64,000 bases of DNA from PVC group bacterium (GTDB lineage Bacteria; Omnitrophota; Gorgyraeia; B26-G9), in assembly GCA_024231215.1 (NCBI GenBank), contig JAAEQR010000142.1, forward strand, positions 100,593-164,592. The letters are read 5' to 3'. The notes beneath the pieces are model-generated. The model was not told the DNA's origin and did no database searches. It was given only the letters and a program-made list of their open reading frames with translations. Both the position numbers and the translations under genes were made by a program. Positions 4,997-26,257 of the stretch are shown here, piece by piece (the first letter of the stretch is position 1; every line of letters starts with the position of its first letter).

Positions 4997-5568
4997 TTTT
5001 ATTAATAGATAATTATGATTCTTTTACATATAATCTAGTTCAATATTTCGGAGAACTGAAGCAAAAGCTAAAAGTAATACGAAACGATAAGATTACAATT
5101 GATCGCATTAAGCGATTGAAACCGGATTATATTGTAATTTCTCCCGGGCCCTGCACCCCAAAAGAAGCAGGACTGTCCTGCGAGATCATTAAGCAATTTG
5201 CCGGAAAAATACCAATCCTCGGAGTTTGCCTGGGACACCAATGCATAGGAAATGCCTTTGGCGGAAAAATAGTTCGCGCCAAAAATATTATGCACGGTAA
5301 AACCTCACAAATATATCATAAAAAAGAAAATATTTTTAAGGGTATTTCAAACCCGTTTACAGCTACACGTTATCATTCTCTGATCATTAAAAAAGATACT
5401 CTCCCTGGATGCTTCTCGATTACAGCCTGGACTAAGGATAAAACAATAATGGCCATAAAACACCGCAAATATCCACTCTGGGGACTTCAATTTCACCCGG
5501 AATCCATTCTAACAAAAGACGGAAAAAAAATTCTTTCCAACTTCTTAAAAGAGGGGATAAAAAAATGA
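4993..5568 (+). CDS. trpG: anthranilate synthase component II (glutamine amidotransferase)
   Basis: 191 aa; class-I GATase motifs (GVCLGHQ, HPES); start overlaps the trpE stop (ATGA). Confidence 0.9.
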
Positions 5569-19081: not shown

Positions 19082-21112
19082 ATGAGAGTTATGAAAACAA
19101 AAAAACTCCTTATATTGATATTAATTCAACTGTTTCTATTTCAGCCATTATCTTGGGCTGGAACTAGCGAACTTTCACCCCATTTGCGAATTTCTAACTC
19201 CATTGTTCAAGCAACATTCAAAAACAATCCAACCGATAGTCAATTACAACAAAATTCTGATATCCAGACCAACAGGGAGTTACCCGGACTTACAATCGCT
19301 ATTAATATCAGAGATTTAGGCGTAGAAATACTTTCCGGCGGTAAAATAATTTATAAAAACTGTTTAGAAAAAGCAGAGCAAATTCTGCCGCTCCTAAAGA
19401 GAACATTCGGAGTAAGTAATGTATATATTTACGACAGTTTTTATGAGTTGGGCAAGATGAGTACACTTACCCATACCCGCAAGACGGAAGATTATCTAAC
19501 TACATATAATGACTTGGGCATAGAAGAACGCATAAGCCCCATCCATACTGGAAGAGCGTCTGTTATCGTAAAAAATAATTATATTGGAAAGAAAAAAACA
19601 ATCAATACTTCCAGGGGACAGTCAATATTAGATGATCGCAACGGTAATTCTTTTTCTCTTGCTGGGATGATAAAAAAGATAAAGAATAAATGGAAGCTGA
19701 ATATAAACCCTAAATTATCCGATTCCGAATTTCCCGACGCAAAAAAATCCGCTCAGGCCTTAAAAAATTTTTTAGATACCTCTAAACACCTGGATATAAA
19801 AATAATCACTGATTTTATTCCCTGGATGGCTCCAGACGCGGTGGATGAGACTAATTATAAATGGACGTTTTACACAGAAATAAGCGAAGCTGAAAACGCG
19901 CAATTTCGCAGTCTGCCAGGAGAAAAAGAAAAACAGAAATTTATCGAAAATCTTCTGGCCTGGAGCGGCAACAAAAGTTTTACCGCAGTGAGGATAACAG
20001 AGAATGGATTAGAGCGAATAATTTTGGTCAAGCGCCTGCGGTTTTACGGTATCTATAGCGCCGATCAGGTAGTTTTAAATCCCTTTCTACCGGAAGTTCA
20101 AGAATATTATATAAACACCTTGAAACTTTTAACCGATGCGGGTATTGGCGGTGTACGTATTGACTTGGGCGGCATCCTCTTAAACAAAGGCCTAAAAGAT
20201 CCGGAGGCCAGATATCTTGATTTTGTGAGTGAAGAACAAAAGCAAAGCAGTGAAAAATTGCATGGAAAACCCTGGTCTGAAATTATAGCCGGGGAAGAGC
20301 CCTGGAAAAATATTTTGTCTAAGGCTAAAGAATACGCACGGAATAAAAATGCCCCTCTGGAAGTATTGATGGAAATATACAGCTATGACGAAACGGAGAT
20401 GGAACGGGTATTGGCCTTAGGAGTGGATAAACTTTATTATGAAGACGTCTATGAAAATTACAAACACCTGGAATGGGGGACTCCGGAAGAAAAAGCGAAC
20501 GCGGTTAACTGGCTCTATGAATCGCTTGAATTCATGATTAAACATAAAGACAAATTACTTATTTTCCCGATGTCTAATTTTGATAAGCCTTCGGCAGAAT
20601 TGCTTGGCGGCCCCATTACCGGCATGAGAGCATTGTCAATTTATACAGCAAAAGCCGGGATTAAAACAATGGTTGATTTCAGAGAATTATTGGGACAATT
20701 TGGACAATTTTTCCCTATTCCAGGAGGCATTGAAAGCGATGGTACTTACAGCCACCCCTTTGTTAAGGACGCGGAAGCTGAACAGCGTAAAGATTTTGCC
20801 GGAACACAAAATGCTTTAGACAATAGCCCGTTCCTATCGTTGATTAATCGTTTATTTAATATACAAACAGAGTCCGGGCAAACGATAATGTCCTTGCCGG
20901 TGCTCAAGATAAATCCACCGCAAAAAGACGCGCATGGCAAGCTTCATTTAAGCTGGGAAACTGACCAAGGAATAATTGTGCGGTTTTCTATCGACCTAAA
21001 TAATCAGGGCCAGGACAGTTATCAGGTAGATTTTTTTCAGGACAACTTTCAACAACCGCTAAAAACCATGCACGTATCTTCACATAATAACCTTATCCAA
21101 CAGGCAATATAA
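19082..21112 (+). CDS. large secreted hypothetical protein (signal peptide; possible glycosidase-like TIM-barrel segment)
   Basis: 676 aa; N-terminal signal MRVMKTKKLLILILIQLFLFQPLSWAG; GIGGVRIDLGG resembles the region-II motif of GH13-like hydrolases but no full catalytic signature was recognised. Confidence 0.55.
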   Translation: MRVMKTKKLLILILIQLFLFQPLSWAGTSELSPHLRISNSIVQATFKNNPTDSQLQQNSDIQTNRELPGLTIAINIRDLGVEILSGGKIIYKNCLEKAEQILPLLKRTFGVSNVYIYDSFYELGKMSTLTHTRKTEDYLTTYNDLGIEERISPIHTGRASVIVKNNYIGKKKTINTSRGQSILDDRNGNSFSLAGMIKKIKNKWKLNINPKLSDSEFPDAKKSAQALKNFLDTSKHLDIKIITDFIPWMAPDAVDETNYKWTFYTEISEAENAQFRSLPGEKEKQKFIENLLAWSGNKSFTAVRITENGLERIILVKRLRFYGIYSADQVVLNPFLPEVQEYYINTLKLLTDAGIGGVRIDLGGILLNKGLKDPEARYLDFVSEEQKQSSEKLHGKPWSEIIAGEEPWKNILSKAKEYARNKNAPLEVLMEIYSYDETEMERVLALGVDKLYYEDVYENYKHLEWGTPEEKANAVNWLYESLEFMIKHKDKLLIFPMSNFDKPSAELLGGPITGMRALSIYTAKAGIKTMVDFRELLGQFGQFFPIPGGIESDGTYSHPFVKDAEAEQRKDFAGTQNALDNSPFLSLINRLFNIQTESGQTIMSLPVLKINPPQKDAHGKLHLSWETDQGIIVRFSIDLNNQGQDSYQVDFFQDNFQQPLKTMHVSSHNNLIQQAI

Positions 21113-21614: not shown

Positions 21615-21690
21615 GGGGCTGTAGCTCAGCTGGGAGAGCGTCTGGTTCGCAATCAGAAGGTCATGGGTTCGATCCCCGTCAGCTCCACCA
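21615..21690 (+). tRNA. tRNA-Ala (anticodon CGC)
   Basis: 76-nt cloverleaf folded by hand: 7-bp acceptor stem with the G3:U70 Ala identity pair; anticodon loop TTCGCAA; T-loop GGTTCGATCC; encoded CCA. Confidence 0.85.
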
Positions 21691-21731: not shown

Positions 21732-22463
21732 TTGAAAGGGGATAAAACTATGAGAACACCAAATCTAATCATTCCCATCGTTATAACTACACTTATGTTC
21801 AGCTATATCGCTGAATCACAAGCAGAAATAGGTATTGGCAGTACTCGCAAAGAGGTTATTGATACATATGGGCTGCCCTCAGGACAATTAAAAAGCGGTG
21901 ACGAAGAAATACTCACCTATCCGGGAGGACTGCTTACCATCCGCAACGATAAAGTCATAAGCATAGATGATGACTTTGTACAACGCTTAGAATCTCGTAA
22001 AAAAACAAACGCGTTTGAATCTGAACAGAAAGCAAAAGGATTAATTCTTCATAATGGAAAATGGATCACCAAAGCTGAAAAACAATCACAAGAACGCAGC
22101 CAAGCTGAAGAAGAAATAAAACAGAGATTAACCAATGACCCGATACTTGTATTTTCCAATCAAGGTCAAGCCATAGATATTAACGCCCTACTAGTTTCGG
22201 GAAAAATAACAATTATTGATTTTTATGCAGATTGGTGCGGTCCCTGCAAATCAATTTCCCCGCATTTAGAACAGATCGCAAGAAATGACCCGGAAGTTTT
22301 CCTGCGTAAAGTAGATATCGTAACCTGGCAAACTCCGGTTGTTCAGCAATATGCGATCAAAAGCGTCCCTAATATACGTGTATTTAATCGTCGAGGCAAA
22401 ATGATCGGACAACCAACTCATAATATAAATCAGGTGCAAGAGTATATCGAAAAAGCAAAATAA
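21732..22463 (+). CDS. thioredoxin-domain protein with N-terminal signal/anchor and coiled-coil linker
   Basis: 243 aa; C-terminal thioredoxin fold with the WCGPC active site (IDFYADWCGPCKSISP). Confidence 0.75.
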   Translation: MKGDKTMRTPNLIIPIVITTLMFSYIAESQAEIGIGSTRKEVIDTYGLPSGQLKSGDEEILTYPGGLLTIRNDKVISIDDDFVQRLESRKKTNAFESEQKAKGLILHNGKWITKAEKQSQERSQAEEEIKQRLTNDPILVFSNQGQAIDINALLVSGKITIIDFYADWCGPCKSISPHLEQIARNDPEVFLRKVDIVTWQTPVVQQYAIKSVPNIRVFNRRGKMIGQPTHNINQVQEYIEKAK

Positions 22464-22481
22464 TATAAAGGACTACATAGT

Positions 22482-23084
22482 ATGGAAAGATTAGAGAACC
22501 GAAACAAAATACTTGTTACCCAAAAAAAAGAATGGGGAGAAATCTTAAGCGGCTTTGAAACAAAAAATAAATATATTGTAAAAGATGAAAACGGGCAAGC
22601 TATCTATCTAGCCGCAGAAATAGGCGGTTCAGTTCTCGCAAGAATCTTTCTCAAAGCATTGAGACCTTTTACGCTTCACGTTATGGACGAAAAACATCAG
22701 CCTGTTTTAAAACTACAAAGACCGTTCCGATTCTATTTCCATAGAATAGACGTCTTCGATTCAGAAAATAATTTCTTAGGACATATAGAACGGCAGTTTT
22801 CTCTTTTTAGCCGCCAATATTTGGTTTTCAATGAATCCAGACAGCAAATCTGTCAGCTTTACGGCCCTTTCATTCATCCCTGGACATTTCTTATCAAACA
22901 AAGAGGCCGGGAACTCGGCAAGATAACAAAAAAATGGAGCGGCCTCTTTAAAGAAGGCTTTACAGACGCAGACAACTTTGCTGTCTTGTTTCCGGAGGAG
23001 GCAACACTCACAGAAAAAAGCCTATTTTTAAGCGCAGTATTTTTAATCGATTTTGTACACTTTGAAAACACAGGCAACCGGTAA
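22482..23084 (+). CDS. phospholipid scramblase-family protein (PLSCR-like)
   Basis: 200 aa; strikingly similar to eukaryotic PLSCR1 (GFETKNKYIVKDENGQAIYLAAE, ITKKWSGLFKEGFTDADNFAVLFP, FLIDFVHFENTG) as recalled from memory. Confidence 0.7.
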   Translation: MERLENRNKILVTQKKEWGEILSGFETKNKYIVKDENGQAIYLAAEIGGSVLARIFLKALRPFTLHVMDEKHQPVLKLQRPFRFYFHRIDVFDSENNFLGHIERQFSLFSRQYLVFNESRQQICQLYGPFIHPWTFLIKQRGRELGKITKKWSGLFKEGFTDADNFAVLFPEEATLTEKSLFLSAVFLIDFVHFENTGNR

Positions 23085-23100
23085 TTAAAGATAATACTTC

Positions 23101-23604
23101 ATGCAATTTATAGATAAAAAGTTTAAGTATAACAAACGCAGTTATATAATTCAAAGTTTATTAGCAACTTTGTCTATATTTATAGTTTTGCTATTACTCG
23201 ATGCGAAAACCAATGCGGCAATCATCGCATCCTTAGGTGCCAGTTCCTTTATTGCCTTTACCGTTCCCCATGCCTCAAATTCCGGGCCCAGATTCCTGAT
23301 TGGAGGATATACAGTGGGGATTTTATCAGGAGGCATCTGTCATTACTTATCTTTATTAGCATGCTTGCAAAACATCCCGATTATTAACGAATTATCTTAT
23401 ATTTTTTTTGCATCTTTAGCCGTGGGGCTTGCAATCTTCATCATGGTAATCACCAATACAGAACATCCACCTGCTGCGGGGCTTGCATTAGGCCTGGTAT
23501 TTAACGCTTTTAATCACCGTACGTTACTTGTTGTAATTCTCGGGATAATCGCACTTTCACTCATAAAAACATTATTAAAACCTCTCCTGAAAAATTTATT
23601 GTAA
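23101..23604 (+). CDS. HPP-family integral membrane protein
   Basis: 167 aa, 4-5 TM helices; conserved EHPPAAG motif. Confidence 0.7.
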   Translation: MQFIDKKFKYNKRSYIIQSLLATLSIFIVLLLLDAKTNAAIIASLGASSFIAFTVPHASNSGPRFLIGGYTVGILSGGICHYLSLLACLQNIPIINELSYIFFASLAVGLAIFIMVITNTEHPPAAGLALGLVFNAFNHRTLLVVILGIIALSLIKTLLKPLLKNLL

Positions 23605-23675
23605 ATTATTTTCTTGTACCTCGCCCAAAGTATGCTAAAATAATCTCAGATCGTGGTTAACCAATTAGGGGATAA

Positions 23676-24788
23676 GTGGTTATGTTATTAAATCGCCGAG
23701 TTTTCTTAAAAACATCTCTTGCCGCCGGCAGTTATTTACTAGGCAGCACCTTACCAATACTAAACGCCCAAACAATAAATCCAAAAGAAGCCCTGCATTA
23801 TATCCCTCTAGCTAATTCAAGTGTCCAATGCCAACGCTGTCCTCATAGTTGTGTTATCACAAAAGGAGAGCGGGGATTCTGTAGAGTAAGAGAAAACAAC
23901 GATGGGAAATTATACAATATAGTCTACGGAAAACCATGTGCTGTACACGTAGACCCGATTGAAAAAAAACCCTTATTCCATGTATTGCCCGGGACCATGT
24001 CTTTCTCAATCGCTACAGTCGGATGCAACTTAACTTGCAAATTCTGTCAAAATTGGCAAATATCCCAAGCCTCCCCGGAAAACGTACAAACAGTAGAAAT
24101 GCCTCCGGAATTAATTGTATCAAAAGCATTAAAAACAAAATGTAAAACAATAGCCTATACCTATACTGAAGCATCTGTATTTTATGAATACATGCTGGAT
24201 ATCGCAAAAATCGCCCAGGATAACGATATCAAAAACGTAATACATTCTAACGGATTTATAAATCCCAAGCCGCTAAAAGAACTCTGCCCGTATATCACCG
24301 CCATGAATGTCGATCTTAAGGGATTTTCCGAAAATTATTACAATGAAATCTGCTCGGGAAATCTTAAAACAGTATTAAACAGTTTATGTACAATAAAAGA
24401 GCAGGGGGTCTGGCTTGAACTCACAAATCTTCTTATTCCAACCTTAAATGACAGTACAAAAAAAATAAAAGAAATGTGCTCATGGATAAAAAATAATCTA
24501 GGGAATGATGTACCTATACATTTTTCGCGTTTCTTTCCAACATACAAGCTTACCACTTTACCGCCAACTCCGGTAAGCACACTAGAGAACGCAAGAAATA
24601 TCGCTCTTGATGTCGGGCTAAAGTTTGTTTATATCGGAAACCTTCCCGGGCATGCAGCAGAAAATACATATTGTCCACATTGCAACAATGTAATTATAAA
24701 AAGAAGCGGTTATACAGTTTTAGAAAACACGATCAATAACGGGAACTGTACGATATGCGGCAATTCAATTCAAGGAGTATGGACATGA
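23676..24788 (+). CDS. amrS: AmmeMemoRadiSam system radical SAM enzyme, with a predicted twin-arginine (Tat) signal peptide
   Basis: 370 aa; CNLTCKFCQNW CxxxCxxC radical SAM motif in a PflA-like fold; N-terminus NRRVFLKTSLAAGSYLLGSTLPILNAQ matches Tat RRxFLK; additional Cys pairs (CQRCPHSC, CPHCNN, CTIC). Confidence 0.85.
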   Translation: MVMLLNRRVFLKTSLAAGSYLLGSTLPILNAQTINPKEALHYIPLANSSVQCQRCPHSCVITKGERGFCRVRENNDGKLYNIVYGKPCAVHVDPIEKKPLFHVLPGTMSFSIATVGCNLTCKFCQNWQISQASPENVQTVEMPPELIVSKALKTKCKTIAYTYTEASVFYEYMLDIAKIAQDNDIKNVIHSNGFINPKPLKELCPYITAMNVDLKGFSENYYNEICSGNLKTVLNSLCTIKEQGVWLELTNLLIPTLNDSTKKIKEMCSWIKNNLGNDVPIHFSRFFPTYKLTTLPPTPVSTLENARNIALDVGLKFVYIGNLPGHAAENTYCPHCNNVIIKRSGYTVLENTINNGNCTICGNSIQGVWT

Positions 24789-26257
24789 AAAAAATCCATT
24801 CTATTATACTGGGGATACTCGCAATATTTATTTTCATAATTTTCCATCAATCTCCCGCGCAATCAACAAACATAAAAGAACCTAATGTTAGCGGCAGGTT
24901 TTATCCTTCTGCCCCATACACATTGACCAATATGATTGATAATTATCTCAAAGCAGCGCAACCTCCTGAAATCTCAGGCACAATATACGGACTTATCAGC
25001 CCCCATGCCGGGTATATATATTCCGGGCCGGTAGCTGCCTACGGATATAAAACTATTGCCGAAAAAAGCTATAAAACAGTAGTTATCATCTCTCCCAGTC
25101 ATTATAAATATCTCACCAATGCTGTTGTTTATAAAACCGGTGCTTTTCAAACACCATTGGGAAACGCACGCATAGATTCTTCTTTCACTGCGAAATTGTT
25201 AAAATTAAATACTGATATTGTGCAGATGCCTTCGGTTTTTGAAAAAGAACATGCACTTGAAGTACAAATACCTTTTCTTCAAAGAACACTTAAAAATTTT
25301 AAAATTGTACCGATAATCATGGGCAACAATTCCTACGATCTCTGCAACAGTCTTGCTGAGAGTTTAGCCGCAATAATTAAAGACCGGGATGATGTGCTGA
25401 TCATTGCCAGTTCTGACATGTCGCATTACCACGATCAGGAGAAAGCAAAAGCAATAGATGAACAAACCATGGATATTATTAAAAGCTTTGATACATCAGA
25501 ACTATTGAAAAAAACTGCAGAAAAAGAAATAGAACTCTGCGGCAGCGGGCCGGTAGCAACATTACTGCTTACTATGGAAAAAATGGGTGTCTCTAATATT
25601 CAAAAATTAAACTATGCTACATCCTGGGATACCATGGGTTCCAATAAAAACAAAGTTGTCGGGTACTGCAGCTTTGTTTTTTCAAAAAGGAGATATGATA
25701 TGTTAAAAGAGAATATGTTAAGTGAAATACAAAAAAATAAGTTATTAGTATTAGCCCGGCAATCAATCAGAGAATTCGTTACCCATCGCCAGCACCCCAG
25801 AATTGTTAACAATGATCCGGATCTAACTATAAAACAAGGAGCATTTGTAACAATCAAAAAGAATGGACAATTGCGCGGCTGCATTGGGCGCATTATCGCA
25901 GATACCCCGCTAATCAACACGGTGAGCGAAGTAGCTATCCAGGCCGCGACCGAAGACCCGCGTTTTCCACCGTTAAAGGAAGACGAACTAGATCAAATAC
26001 ATTTAGAAATTTCCGTAATGTCACCACTTAAGTTAATATCCAATATTGATGAAATTGAAGTAGGTAAGCACGGCCTGATCATACGCAAAGGATTTTCTTC
26101 CGGATTATTGCTGCCCCAGGTAGCTACAGAATATAATTGGTCTAAAGAAGAGTTCTTAGAACATACGTGTATGAAGGCTGGATTAAGATCAGATGAATGG
26201 AAAAATAATGCGCAAATGTATATTTTTAGCGCAGAAGTATTTGGAGAAAAAGAATAA
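24785..26257 (+). CDS. fused AmmeMemoRadiSam system protein B (Memo-like) + protein A (AMMECR1 domain), with N-terminal signal/anchor
   Basis: Start chosen at the ATG overlapping the amrS TGA (ATGA) with an AGGAG RBS 7 nt upstream. N-terminal hydrophobic HSIILGILAIFIFIIF...AQS. Memo motifs (GLISPHAGYIYSGPVAAYGY, IISPSHY, SSDMSHY) then AMMECR1 motifs (GAFVTIKKNGQLRGCIG ... GLLLPQVA). Confidence 0.8.
   Translation: MKKIHSIILGILAIFIFIIFHQSPAQSTNIKEPNVSGRFYPSAPYTLTNMIDNYLKAAQPPEISGTIYGLISPHAGYIYSGPVAAYGYKTIAEKSYKTVVIISPSHYKYLTNAVVYKTGAFQTPLGNARIDSSFTAKLLKLNTDIVQMPSVFEKEHALEVQIPFLQRTLKNFKIVPIIMGNNSYDLCNSLAESLAAIIKDRDDVLIIASSDMSHYHDQEKAKAIDEQTMDIIKSFDTSELLKKTAEKEIELCGSGPVATLLLTMEKMGVSNIQKLNYATSWDTMGSNKNKVVGYCSFVFSKRRYDMLKENMLSEIQKNKLLVLARQSIREFVTHRQHPRIVNNDPDLTIKQGAFVTIKKNGQLRGCIGRIIADTPLINTVSEVAIQAATEDPRFPPLKEDELDQIHLEISVMSPLKLISNIDEIEVGKHGLIIRKGFSSGLLLPQVATEYNWSKEEFLEHTCMKAGLRSDEWKNNAQMYIFSAEVFGEKE

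Follow-up and report, generated by a model that had tools for sequence, protein, structure and literature searches.

Can a radical S-adenosylmethionine (SAM) enzyme work outside the cytoplasm? Such enzymes are assumed to be cytoplasmic, as their activity depends on SAM, a low-potential reductant and the assembly of iron–sulfur (Fe-S) clusters. The question is raised by two coupled genes in a 64,000-nucleotide stretch of DNA from an Omnitrophota bacterium (contig JAAEQR010000142.1, positions 100,593 to 164,592; 'the window' below, in whose coordinates all of its features are given, on the forward strand). These genes encode the three components of an AmmeMemoRadiSam system: a radical SAM enzyme (AmrS), and a fusion of the Memo (AmrB) and AMMECR1 (AmrA) domains. 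Both AMMECR1 and MEMO1 show conservation from archaea to humans and have ties to human disease, yet no chemistry has been assigned to the Amme–Memo–radical SAM triad.

A sequence-only reading of this locus had proposed that both products are targeted outside the cytoplasm. Our analysis supports that proposal: we consider it likely that the locus encodes an AmmeMemoRadiSam system that operates outside the cytoplasm, as indicated by conservation of a twin-arginine pair, exchange of signal types among homologues, charge bias around the signals, co-variation of signals between the two genes, and the fusions and neighbours of related proteins. Export itself is predicted; we infer that it occurs and that the signals are cleaved, and likewise how electrons travel, where SAM comes from and what the substrate is. 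A periplasmic radical SAM enzyme, if true, would force a rethink of where SAM, reductant and Fe-S assembly are available.

Predicted export signals on two coupled genes

The amrS gene (23682–24788; TIGR04337, PF04055) encodes a 368-residue AmmeMemoRadiSam radical SAM enzyme with a PflA-like fold, and is followed by an amrB–amrA fusion gene (24785–26257; TIGR04336, TIGR04335) encoding 490 residues. Because the family models align only from residue ∼43 of AmrS and residue ∼31 of the fusion protein, the N-terminal segments of both are additions to conserved cores.

In AmrS, this addition begins with MLLNRRVFLKTSLAAGSYLLGSTLPILNA/Q, and residues 1–29 (23682–23768) form a predicted twin-arginine translocation (Tat) signal peptide, laid out as MLLN-RRVFLK-TSLAAGSYLLGSTLPIL-NA/Q. 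The n-region (MLLN) leads into RRVFLK (23694–23711), and N-R-R-V-F-L-K at residues 4–10 meets the S/T-R-R-x-F-L-K consensus. The following stretch is uncharged (residues 11–34), with residues 11–25 as the h-region, and its weak hydrophobicity is typical of Tat signals (best 11-residue Kyte-Doolittle (KD) mean 1.32, vs. 3.37 for the fusion protein). Read from the sequence, a small-x-small site (L-N-A/Q, residues 27–30) provides a putative cleavage site. An AlphaFold2 (AF2) model places a lone helix (residues 5–21) and a linker, both at lower predicted local distance difference test (pLDDT) values, apart from a confidently modelled core. The arginine pair is conserved in 100% of the 19 nearest AmrS homologues, vs. 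16–84% at other positions in or after the motif. Together, the RRVFLK motif, the weak h-region and the conserved arginine pair bear out the twin-arginine signal described by the sequence-only reading, as a prediction for which Tat-specific models score below threshold (see below).

The fusion protein opens with a segment of another kind (24785–24859), comprising a positively charged n-region (MKK), a hydrophobic h-region (IHSIILGILAIFIFIIF) and a polar c-region (HQSPAQS, with HQSPA/Q as the putative boundary), which is Sec-like and would serve as a signal peptide or a signal anchor. Its h-region is ∼17 residues long and strongly hydrophobic, and the AF2 model again shows the N-terminus as a lone helix (residues 2–21), continued by a linker of lower confidence and detached from the core. 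The earlier description of a hydrophobic signal or anchor at the start of this protein thus holds, both by hydrophobicity and by comparison with homologues, 103 of 120 of which have a hydrophobic (signal or lipoprotein-like) N-terminus.

Could both extensions be annotation artefacts, with true starts lying downstream or an RRxFLK motif arising by chance? The sub-threshold scores of the Tat models would fit such an explanation, which had been raised with the original proposal. The only in-frame starts of AmrS before codon ∼102 are GTG 23676 and ATG 23682, the latter being the start of an identical NCBI protein (368 residues, P0001). No in-frame start separates ATG 24785, likewise the start of an identical NCBI protein (490 residues, P0121), from the Memo core; both NCBI proteins come from a MAG (metagenome-assembled genome) labelled 'PVC group bacterium'. 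As there is no alternative ATG, GTG or TTG between signal and core in either gene, neither N-terminus can be skipped in translation. Both starts are preceded by correctly spaced ribosome-binding sites, read from the sequence: a Shine-Dalgarno-like AGGGGA (23667–23672), 9 nt before the AmrS ATG, and an AAGGAG within the end of amrS (24772–24777), 7 nt before that of the fusion. Across the six frames of the window (128,000 residues), the motif RR.F[LIV]K has a single occurrence, in AmrS, and the signals are conserved in hundreds of homologues from many phyla. An artefact is therefore barely credible. The translational coupling noted earlier is equally clear, the TGA stop of amrS (24786–24788) overlapping ATG 24785 in an ATGA sequence (24785–24788).

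Export signals across homologues

A survey of AmrS homologues for Tat motifs, as the sequence-only reading had proposed, was carried out with a home-made signal classifier on two samples: the 120 closest AmrS homologues (54–65% identical) and 150 family representatives, one per 50%-identity cluster. Among the 120 closest proteins, 32 were classed as twin-arginine (RR)-type, 45 as lysine-arginine (KR)-type (…TKREFLKFCG…) and 31 as Sec-type or lipoprotein-like; 11 carry an extension that the thresholds left unclassified, and a single protein has none. RR signals recur in ∼32 of the 150 cluster representatives, including textbook high-GC examples such as MATRTTRRGFLRGAG…, with a further six representatives being Sec-type and 13 long fusions. 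The remaining large class, 77 of the 150, has no N-terminal extension and starts MKEALFY….

The second protein presents a similar picture. All of its 120 best matches are Memo–AMMECR1 fusions, and among those with hydrophobic N-termini, AxA-like sites are found in many and a good lipobox (…LSAC|S…, …VSAC|G…) in about a dozen. Close relatives thus appear to swap Tat, KR, signal peptidase I and signal peptidase II signals, as would be expected if extracellular placement were the selected property. Judged by these homologues, the export-signal trait belongs to a large multi-phylum clade, of which the window locus is one ordinary member.

The segments might instead tether the proteins to the membrane with their catalytic domains facing the cytoplasm, either as reverse (N-out) anchors or as peripheral helices at the inner leaflet, with a lipid or isoprenoid as a possible substrate; Memo systems have reportedly been linked to isoprenoid modification. 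Such a tether would remove the difficulties posed by SAM and Fe-S clusters, above all for the Sec-type AmrS homologues, and the h-region of the window fusion, given its length and KD value of 3.37, could stay as an uncleaved helix. The distribution of charge argues against a reverse anchor. The flank N-terminal to the hydrophobic segment has a net charge of about +3, vs. ∼0 for the 15 residues after it, and the N-flank exceeds the C-flank in 100 of 109 fusions, 45 of 51 RR-type and 38 of 41 Sec-type AmrS proteins, so that an N-in/C-out topology is predicted. Moreover, the AxA-type sites and lipoboxes of many homologues make sense only on the outer face, and an RR or KR motif with a weakly hydrophobic h-region is a hallmark of Tat rather than of an anchor. 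On balance, we regard a cytoplasm-facing tether as improbable.

Co-variation of signals between the two genes

If placement outside the cytoplasm is a property of the system, signals on the two genes should go together. Loci were drawn from 80 species representatives (Omnitrophota, Desulfobacterota, Bacteroidales, Planctomycetota, Acidobacteriota, Ignavibacteriota, Verrucomicrobiota, two archaeal metagenome-assembled genomes (MAGs) and others), and those with both genes in the stretch read, some from an earlier retrieval, were tabulated with hand-checked calls. Both AmrS and AmrB/AmrA carry a signal in 27 loci, the window included, and neither does in six. A signal-less AmrS accompanies a signal-bearing AmrB/AmrA in five loci (L009, L048, L050, L081, L082), while Tat-type AmrS is found beside AmrB/AmrA proteins without a signal in two loci where unfused proteins could be read (L019, L022; AmrA is signal-less in both, next to an AmrB that is cut short or only partly read). 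The association is significant (Fisher p = 0.0026, not corrected for phylogeny), and both matched states occur within the Bacteroidales, with signals on both genes in L075, L083 and L084 and on neither in L076 and L079. Canonical signal-less AmrS loci were also sampled to enlarge the class with neither signal, but are uninformative, as AmrA and AmrB are not adjacent in the loci retrieved. In two further loci (L070, ∼2200–2440; L072, ∼5190–5430), the transmembrane (TM) or signal segment of AmrS is out of frame with the core, pointing to a frameshift in the MAG assembly or a pseudogene.

The mixed loci bear on another explanation, in which catalysis takes place in the cytoplasm, before export. 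AmrS would use SAM inside the cell, for instance by modifying a bound partner or substrate as glycyl-radical activases, anSME or the HXS maturases do, and then leave by the Tat pathway on its own or as part of a complex, with no radical SAM turnover on the outside. An AmrS that lacks a signal would remain in the cytoplasm, and export would be confined to the matured Memo–AMMECR1 protein. Such maturase or hitch-hiking logic would fit L019 and L022, as well as the five loci where the fusion bears a signal and AmrS does not, and the closest solved fold, PflA, is that of a protein-modifying activase. There is precedent for a periplasmic effector matured by a radical SAM enzyme (HXS; PMC13128918), and the Tat pathway transports folded complexes (PMC10924467). 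In the arrangement found in the window, however, a Sec-exported fusion protein would cross the membrane unfolded, precluding a pre-export complex with AmrS, and Sec-type AmrS homologues would never fold inside the cell. We consider this explanation unlikely, and the architecture of related proteins, described next, adds to the case against it.

Fusion partners and neighbouring genes of related AmrS proteins

Among the 50%-cluster representatives, fusion partners were collected for AmrS domains ∼50% identical to that of the window. Two proteins (P0259, P0262) have one N-terminal TM segment followed by an FMN_bind domain and AmrS, with no TM segment between these last two; the FMN_bind domains contain the ApbE motif DxxSGAT (DTVSGAT, DAVSGAT). 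In P0248, a signal precedes a CBM_11 carbohydrate-binding module and AmrS, and in P0241, a Reg_prop/PorZ-like beta-propeller lies between signal and AmrS. Evidence on location was taken only from these four fusions, which lack an intervening TM segment. Others include FMN_bind plus a NapH-like Fer4_5 membrane domain plus AmrS (P0243, P0244) and a DsbD_2 membrane domain plus AmrS (P0245, P0249, P0256). P0243 and P0244 had been considered as proof of which membrane face AmrS occupies, but their crude TM counts are 7 and 6, respectively, and they were not used as evidence.

Direct fusion to a flavinylatable FMN_bind domain, a CBM_11 module or a beta-propeller is hard to reconcile with catalytic domains that face the cytoplasm. 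As described by Meheust et al. 2021 (PMC8238504), ApbE-flavinylated FMN_bind domains are extracytosolic, and NapH-like and DsbD systems pass electrons outward. By their architecture, the FMN_bind–AmrS fusions point to a flavin outside the cytoplasm as reductant of the radical SAM cluster, and offer a testable answer to the reductant question. Likewise, fusions to FMN_bind, NapH-like and DsbD_2 domains imply that the cluster is reduced outside and that AmrS would turn over there, contrary to chemistry completed before export. An exported branch fused to electron-transfer and carbohydrate-binding modules would also narrow the search for a substrate to the cell envelope, and offers experimentally tractable variants.

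A third class of fusions concerns the components themselves. Signal-less triple fusions, in the order AmrS–AMMECR1–Memo or Memo–AMMECR1–AmrS, were found in P0322, P0352, P0355, P0364 and P0370 (∼900–1100 residues) and in P0265 and P0270, while P0251 has one N-terminal TM segment followed by AmrS, Memo and AMMECR1 in a single chain. As gene fusions, these provide Rosetta-stone evidence that the three components may act as one complex. The charge balance around the single TM segment of P0251 is ambiguous and would be compatible with a cytoplasm-facing tether.

The surroundings of AmrS were clustered in 85 loci. A tatC gene lies within 4 kb of AmrS in three, vs. ∼0.28 expected (Poisson P = 0.003). 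In one of them (L037:5006–6000, from a MAG labelled Altiarchaeota), tatA-tatC-tatA are located directly 5′ of, and co-oriented with, an RR-type AmrS gene; next come a gene for a Memo–AMMECR1 fusion with a lipobox and one for a fused MFS/spermidine synthase. In L006, tatA/tatC are 1.3 kb from an RR-type AmrS gene. TatC is widespread in Omnitrophota, the lineage of the syntenic relative L003, and a query with the L006 TatC retrieves only Omnitrophota TatC proteins, so that the Tat pathway exists in this lineage.

Redox-related genes are also found near AmrS, with DsbD_2 genes in nine of the 85 loci and FMN_bind ORFs (open reading frames) neighbouring AmrS in six further loci. DUF362 genes lie directly upstream of an RR-type AmrS in 11 loci (e.g. 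L023, L026, L027, L029, L040, L062, L063), most of them with an RR-type signal of their own. The most frequent neighbour, adjoining exported-type AmrS in ∼40 of the 85 loci and in many phyla, is a polytopic protein of 700–1300 residues resembling a major facilitator superfamily (MFS) protein fused to spermidine synthase (NF037959, PF01564). Examples are encoded at L064:3748–5898, L007:7119–9365 (reverse strand), L056:7126–9369 and L081:7185–11129. With its spermidine-synthase-like domain, of a kind that binds SAM or decarboxylated SAM, this protein could bear on the chemistry of these compounds at the membrane, and is offered as a lead rather than an answer. A search of the 64-kb window for FMN_bind, NapH-like, DsbD_2, DUF362 and fused MFS/spermidine synthase genes found none.

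An exported radical SAM enzyme is not always part of a three-component system, because the Desulfobacterota-type loci L001 (8393–11128) and L004 (6852–9170) contain stand-alone TIGR04337 members with Tat/KR-type signals and no AmrA or AmrB nearby. In both loci, AmrS is divergently paired with a second radical SAM gene of ∼350 codons, and L001 also encodes a C_GCAxxG_C_C protein.

A proposed route and the points that weigh against it

In the mechanism that we favour, AmrS would be made with its twin-arginine signal and acquire its Fe-S clusters before leaving the cytoplasm, and the Tat pathway would then carry the folded protein across the inner membrane. The coupled Memo–AMMECR1 fusion would leave by its Sec-type signal, to be either released by cleavage or retained as an anchored protein. 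The two would come together on the outward side of the inner membrane or within the periplasm, acting jointly on an envelope or other extracytoplasmic substrate. In relatives, the radical SAM cluster would be reduced by a covalently flavinylated FMN_bind domain, an external equivalent of flavodoxin that would receive its electrons from NapH-like or DsbD-like conduits and secreted thioredoxins. Taken to its full extent, this would be the first radical SAM system to turn over outside the cytoplasm: a multi-phylum clade with an envelope substrate, outward electron conduits and a yet-unknown supply of SAM. We advance this stronger proposal tentatively, as a possibility somewhat short of even. A candidate for the SAM supply would be the fused MFS/spermidine-synthase-like protein that neighbours AmrS in about half of the related loci.

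Several observations weigh against extracytoplasmic placement and activity. The AmrS peptide of the window falls below the cut-offs of both Tat-specific hidden Markov models (HMMs), with 13.8 bits for TIGR01409 (cut-off 16.7) and 15.0 bits for PF10518 (cut-off 22.7). It is the only hit of each model, albeit below the cut-off, and the homologue P0054 passes TIGR01409 with 21.8 bits. Neither tatA nor tatC was found in the 64-kb window, to which the search of this genome was confined. To our knowledge, there is neither a SAM supply nor Fe-S assembly outside the cytoplasm. The 31 of the 120 closest AmrS proteins with Sec- or lipoprotein-type signals would be exported unfolded and without clusters, presenting an Fe-S loading paradox. 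The mixed loci run counter to this reading as well, both L019 and L022 and the five in which AmrS begins at CxxCxxxC and adjoins a fusion with a signal or lipobox. These are genuine exceptions that a model with all components outside does not account for. It is because the SAM source, the Sec-type AmrS proteins and the five mixed loci do not fit the extracytoplasmic model that chemistry before export and a cytoplasm-facing tether are both kept alive.

Conserved cores and cysteine modules

The cores of both proteins are those of their families. AmrS scores 373.8 bits against TIGR04337 (cut-off 220) over residues 43–369 of a 370-residue ORF, in which the PF04055 (Radical_SAM) match spans residues 113–265; among its secondary HMM matches, the best are to NrdG, PflA and the YjjW activase. 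The fusion protein scores 276.6 bits against TIGR04336 (cut-off 26) and 195.9 bits against TIGR04335 (cut-off 99), which, together with the PF01875 and PF01871 matches given below, confirms the Memo–AMMECR1 fusion that had been recognized in the second gene.

The AF2 model of AmrS is of high confidence (pLDDT 96), and its best match in the PDB is PflA (3cb8; target-based TM-score (TMt) 0.80). Our search found no solved structure of any TIGR04337 family member. The radical SAM motif CxxxCxxC (C115, C119, C122; 24024–24047) occupies invariant alignment columns within the PF04055 match. It is flanked by an N-terminal module, CxxCxxxC...C (C50, C53, C57, C67; 23829–23882), which is invariant or nearly so in 68 diverse family members and is probably an auxiliary metal or Fe-S site, and by a C-terminal CxxC...CxxC module (C331, C334, C356, C359; 24672–24758), at least 90% conserved family-wide and a putative cofactor site. 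The extra cysteine pairs to which the sequence-only reading had drawn attention are therefore present, but the link to export drawn from them does not stand. Being conserved throughout the family, including its signal-less members, they can be ruled out as an adaptation to export.

The Memo (AmrB) domain (24878–25675; PF01875, E = 4e-68) contains the metal-site residues of SPHAGY, SPSH, SSDMSH and CGSGP, and its His/His/Asp-His/Cys positions align with the MEMO1 structures 3bcz and 7kq8, indicating that a MEMO1-type metal site is kept. The AMMECR1 (AmrA) domain (25748–26242; PF01871, E = 2e-58), which aligns to 1zq7, 1vaj and 1wsc, carries LRGCIG and DPRF, corresponding to the RGChG and DxRa motifs defined in PMC2034487. 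The AF2 model of the whole fusion protein has a pLDDT of 93.

Relation to known systems

The locus matches the canonical AmmeMemoRadiSam system (TIGR04335, TIGR04336, TIGR04337; function unknown) in that all three families are recognized far above their cut-offs in adjacent genes, and CxxxCxxC, both cysteine modules, the MEMO1-type metal site and RGCIG/DPRF are kept. Canonical members begin at the core, whereas both proteins of the window carry predicted export signals, and in relatives the system is connected with components of the Tat, DsbD-like, NapH-like and FMN_bind kinds. An AMMECR1–dioxygenase (Memo) fusion with a linked radical SAM gene has already been described (Balaji & Aravind 2007, PMC2034487), and the parts of that paper concerned with it infer a cytoplasmic role in RNA-base modification and make no mention of export signals. 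The fusion is real but common, and as it was reported in 2007 (PMC2034487) it is not new to this locus. Such fusions also bear the product name 'protein B/protein A' at JGI. In short, the families, the linkage of their genes and the fusion of Memo with AMMECR1 were known before, and the export signals are implicit in databases; what is new is the predicted exported variant, and the clade is the interesting object.

Among solved structures, AmrS is most similar to PflA and related glycyl-radical activases, as the 3cb8 match indicates. Identity is only ∼15%, however, and AmrS adds N- and C-terminal Cys4 modules, no glycyl-radical partner is present, and PflA is cytoplasmic, where its reductant is flavodoxin, an FMN (flavin mononucleotide) protein. 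Fe-S proteins exported by the Tat pathway include hydrogenase small subunits, Rieske proteins and NapG/NrfC-type ferredoxins, whose clusters are loaded before export. AmrS shares with these an RRxFLK-type signal and a weakly hydrophobic h-region; unlike AmrS, none is known to be a radical SAM enzyme.

Relatives of the window AmrS share with the ApbE-flavinylated systems (PMC8238504) their FMN_bind, NapH-like Fer4_5 and DsbD_2 components, either fused or nearby. In contrast, the survey of those systems (PMC8238504) omits radical SAM, Memo and AMMECR1 proteins, and the window lacks such modules, although a secreted protein with a thioredoxin domain is encoded upstream. In the literature searched, which did not cover Burroughs et al. 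2019 (JBC), we found no description of an exported AmmeMemoRadiSam system or of any periplasmic radical SAM enzyme.

Surroundings of the locus in the window

A promoter and terminator scan around the operon gave nothing above shuffled controls, and an Rfam scan matched only a tRNA, with no SAM riboswitch found. The tRNA gene (21615–21687; RF00005, 64.6 bits) lies just 5′ of a thioredoxin gene, and may mark the start of a transcription unit. Further upstream (19082–21112) lies the gene for a 676-residue protein whose signal peptide (MRVMKTKKLLILILIQLFLFQPLSWA) is clear but for which Pfam gives no match at E ≤ 0.001. Three consecutive genes directly 5′ of amrS (21732–23604) specify a secreted protein with a thioredoxin domain (WCGPC), a scramblase-family protein and an HPP-family membrane protein. 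A syntenic locus from an Omnitrophota MAG (L003), which places the organism of the window near that phylum, contains, in order, genes for the thioredoxin, scramblase-like and HPP proteins, AmrS and the AmrB–AmrA fusion, followed by aroQ, pepP, efp, accB and accC.

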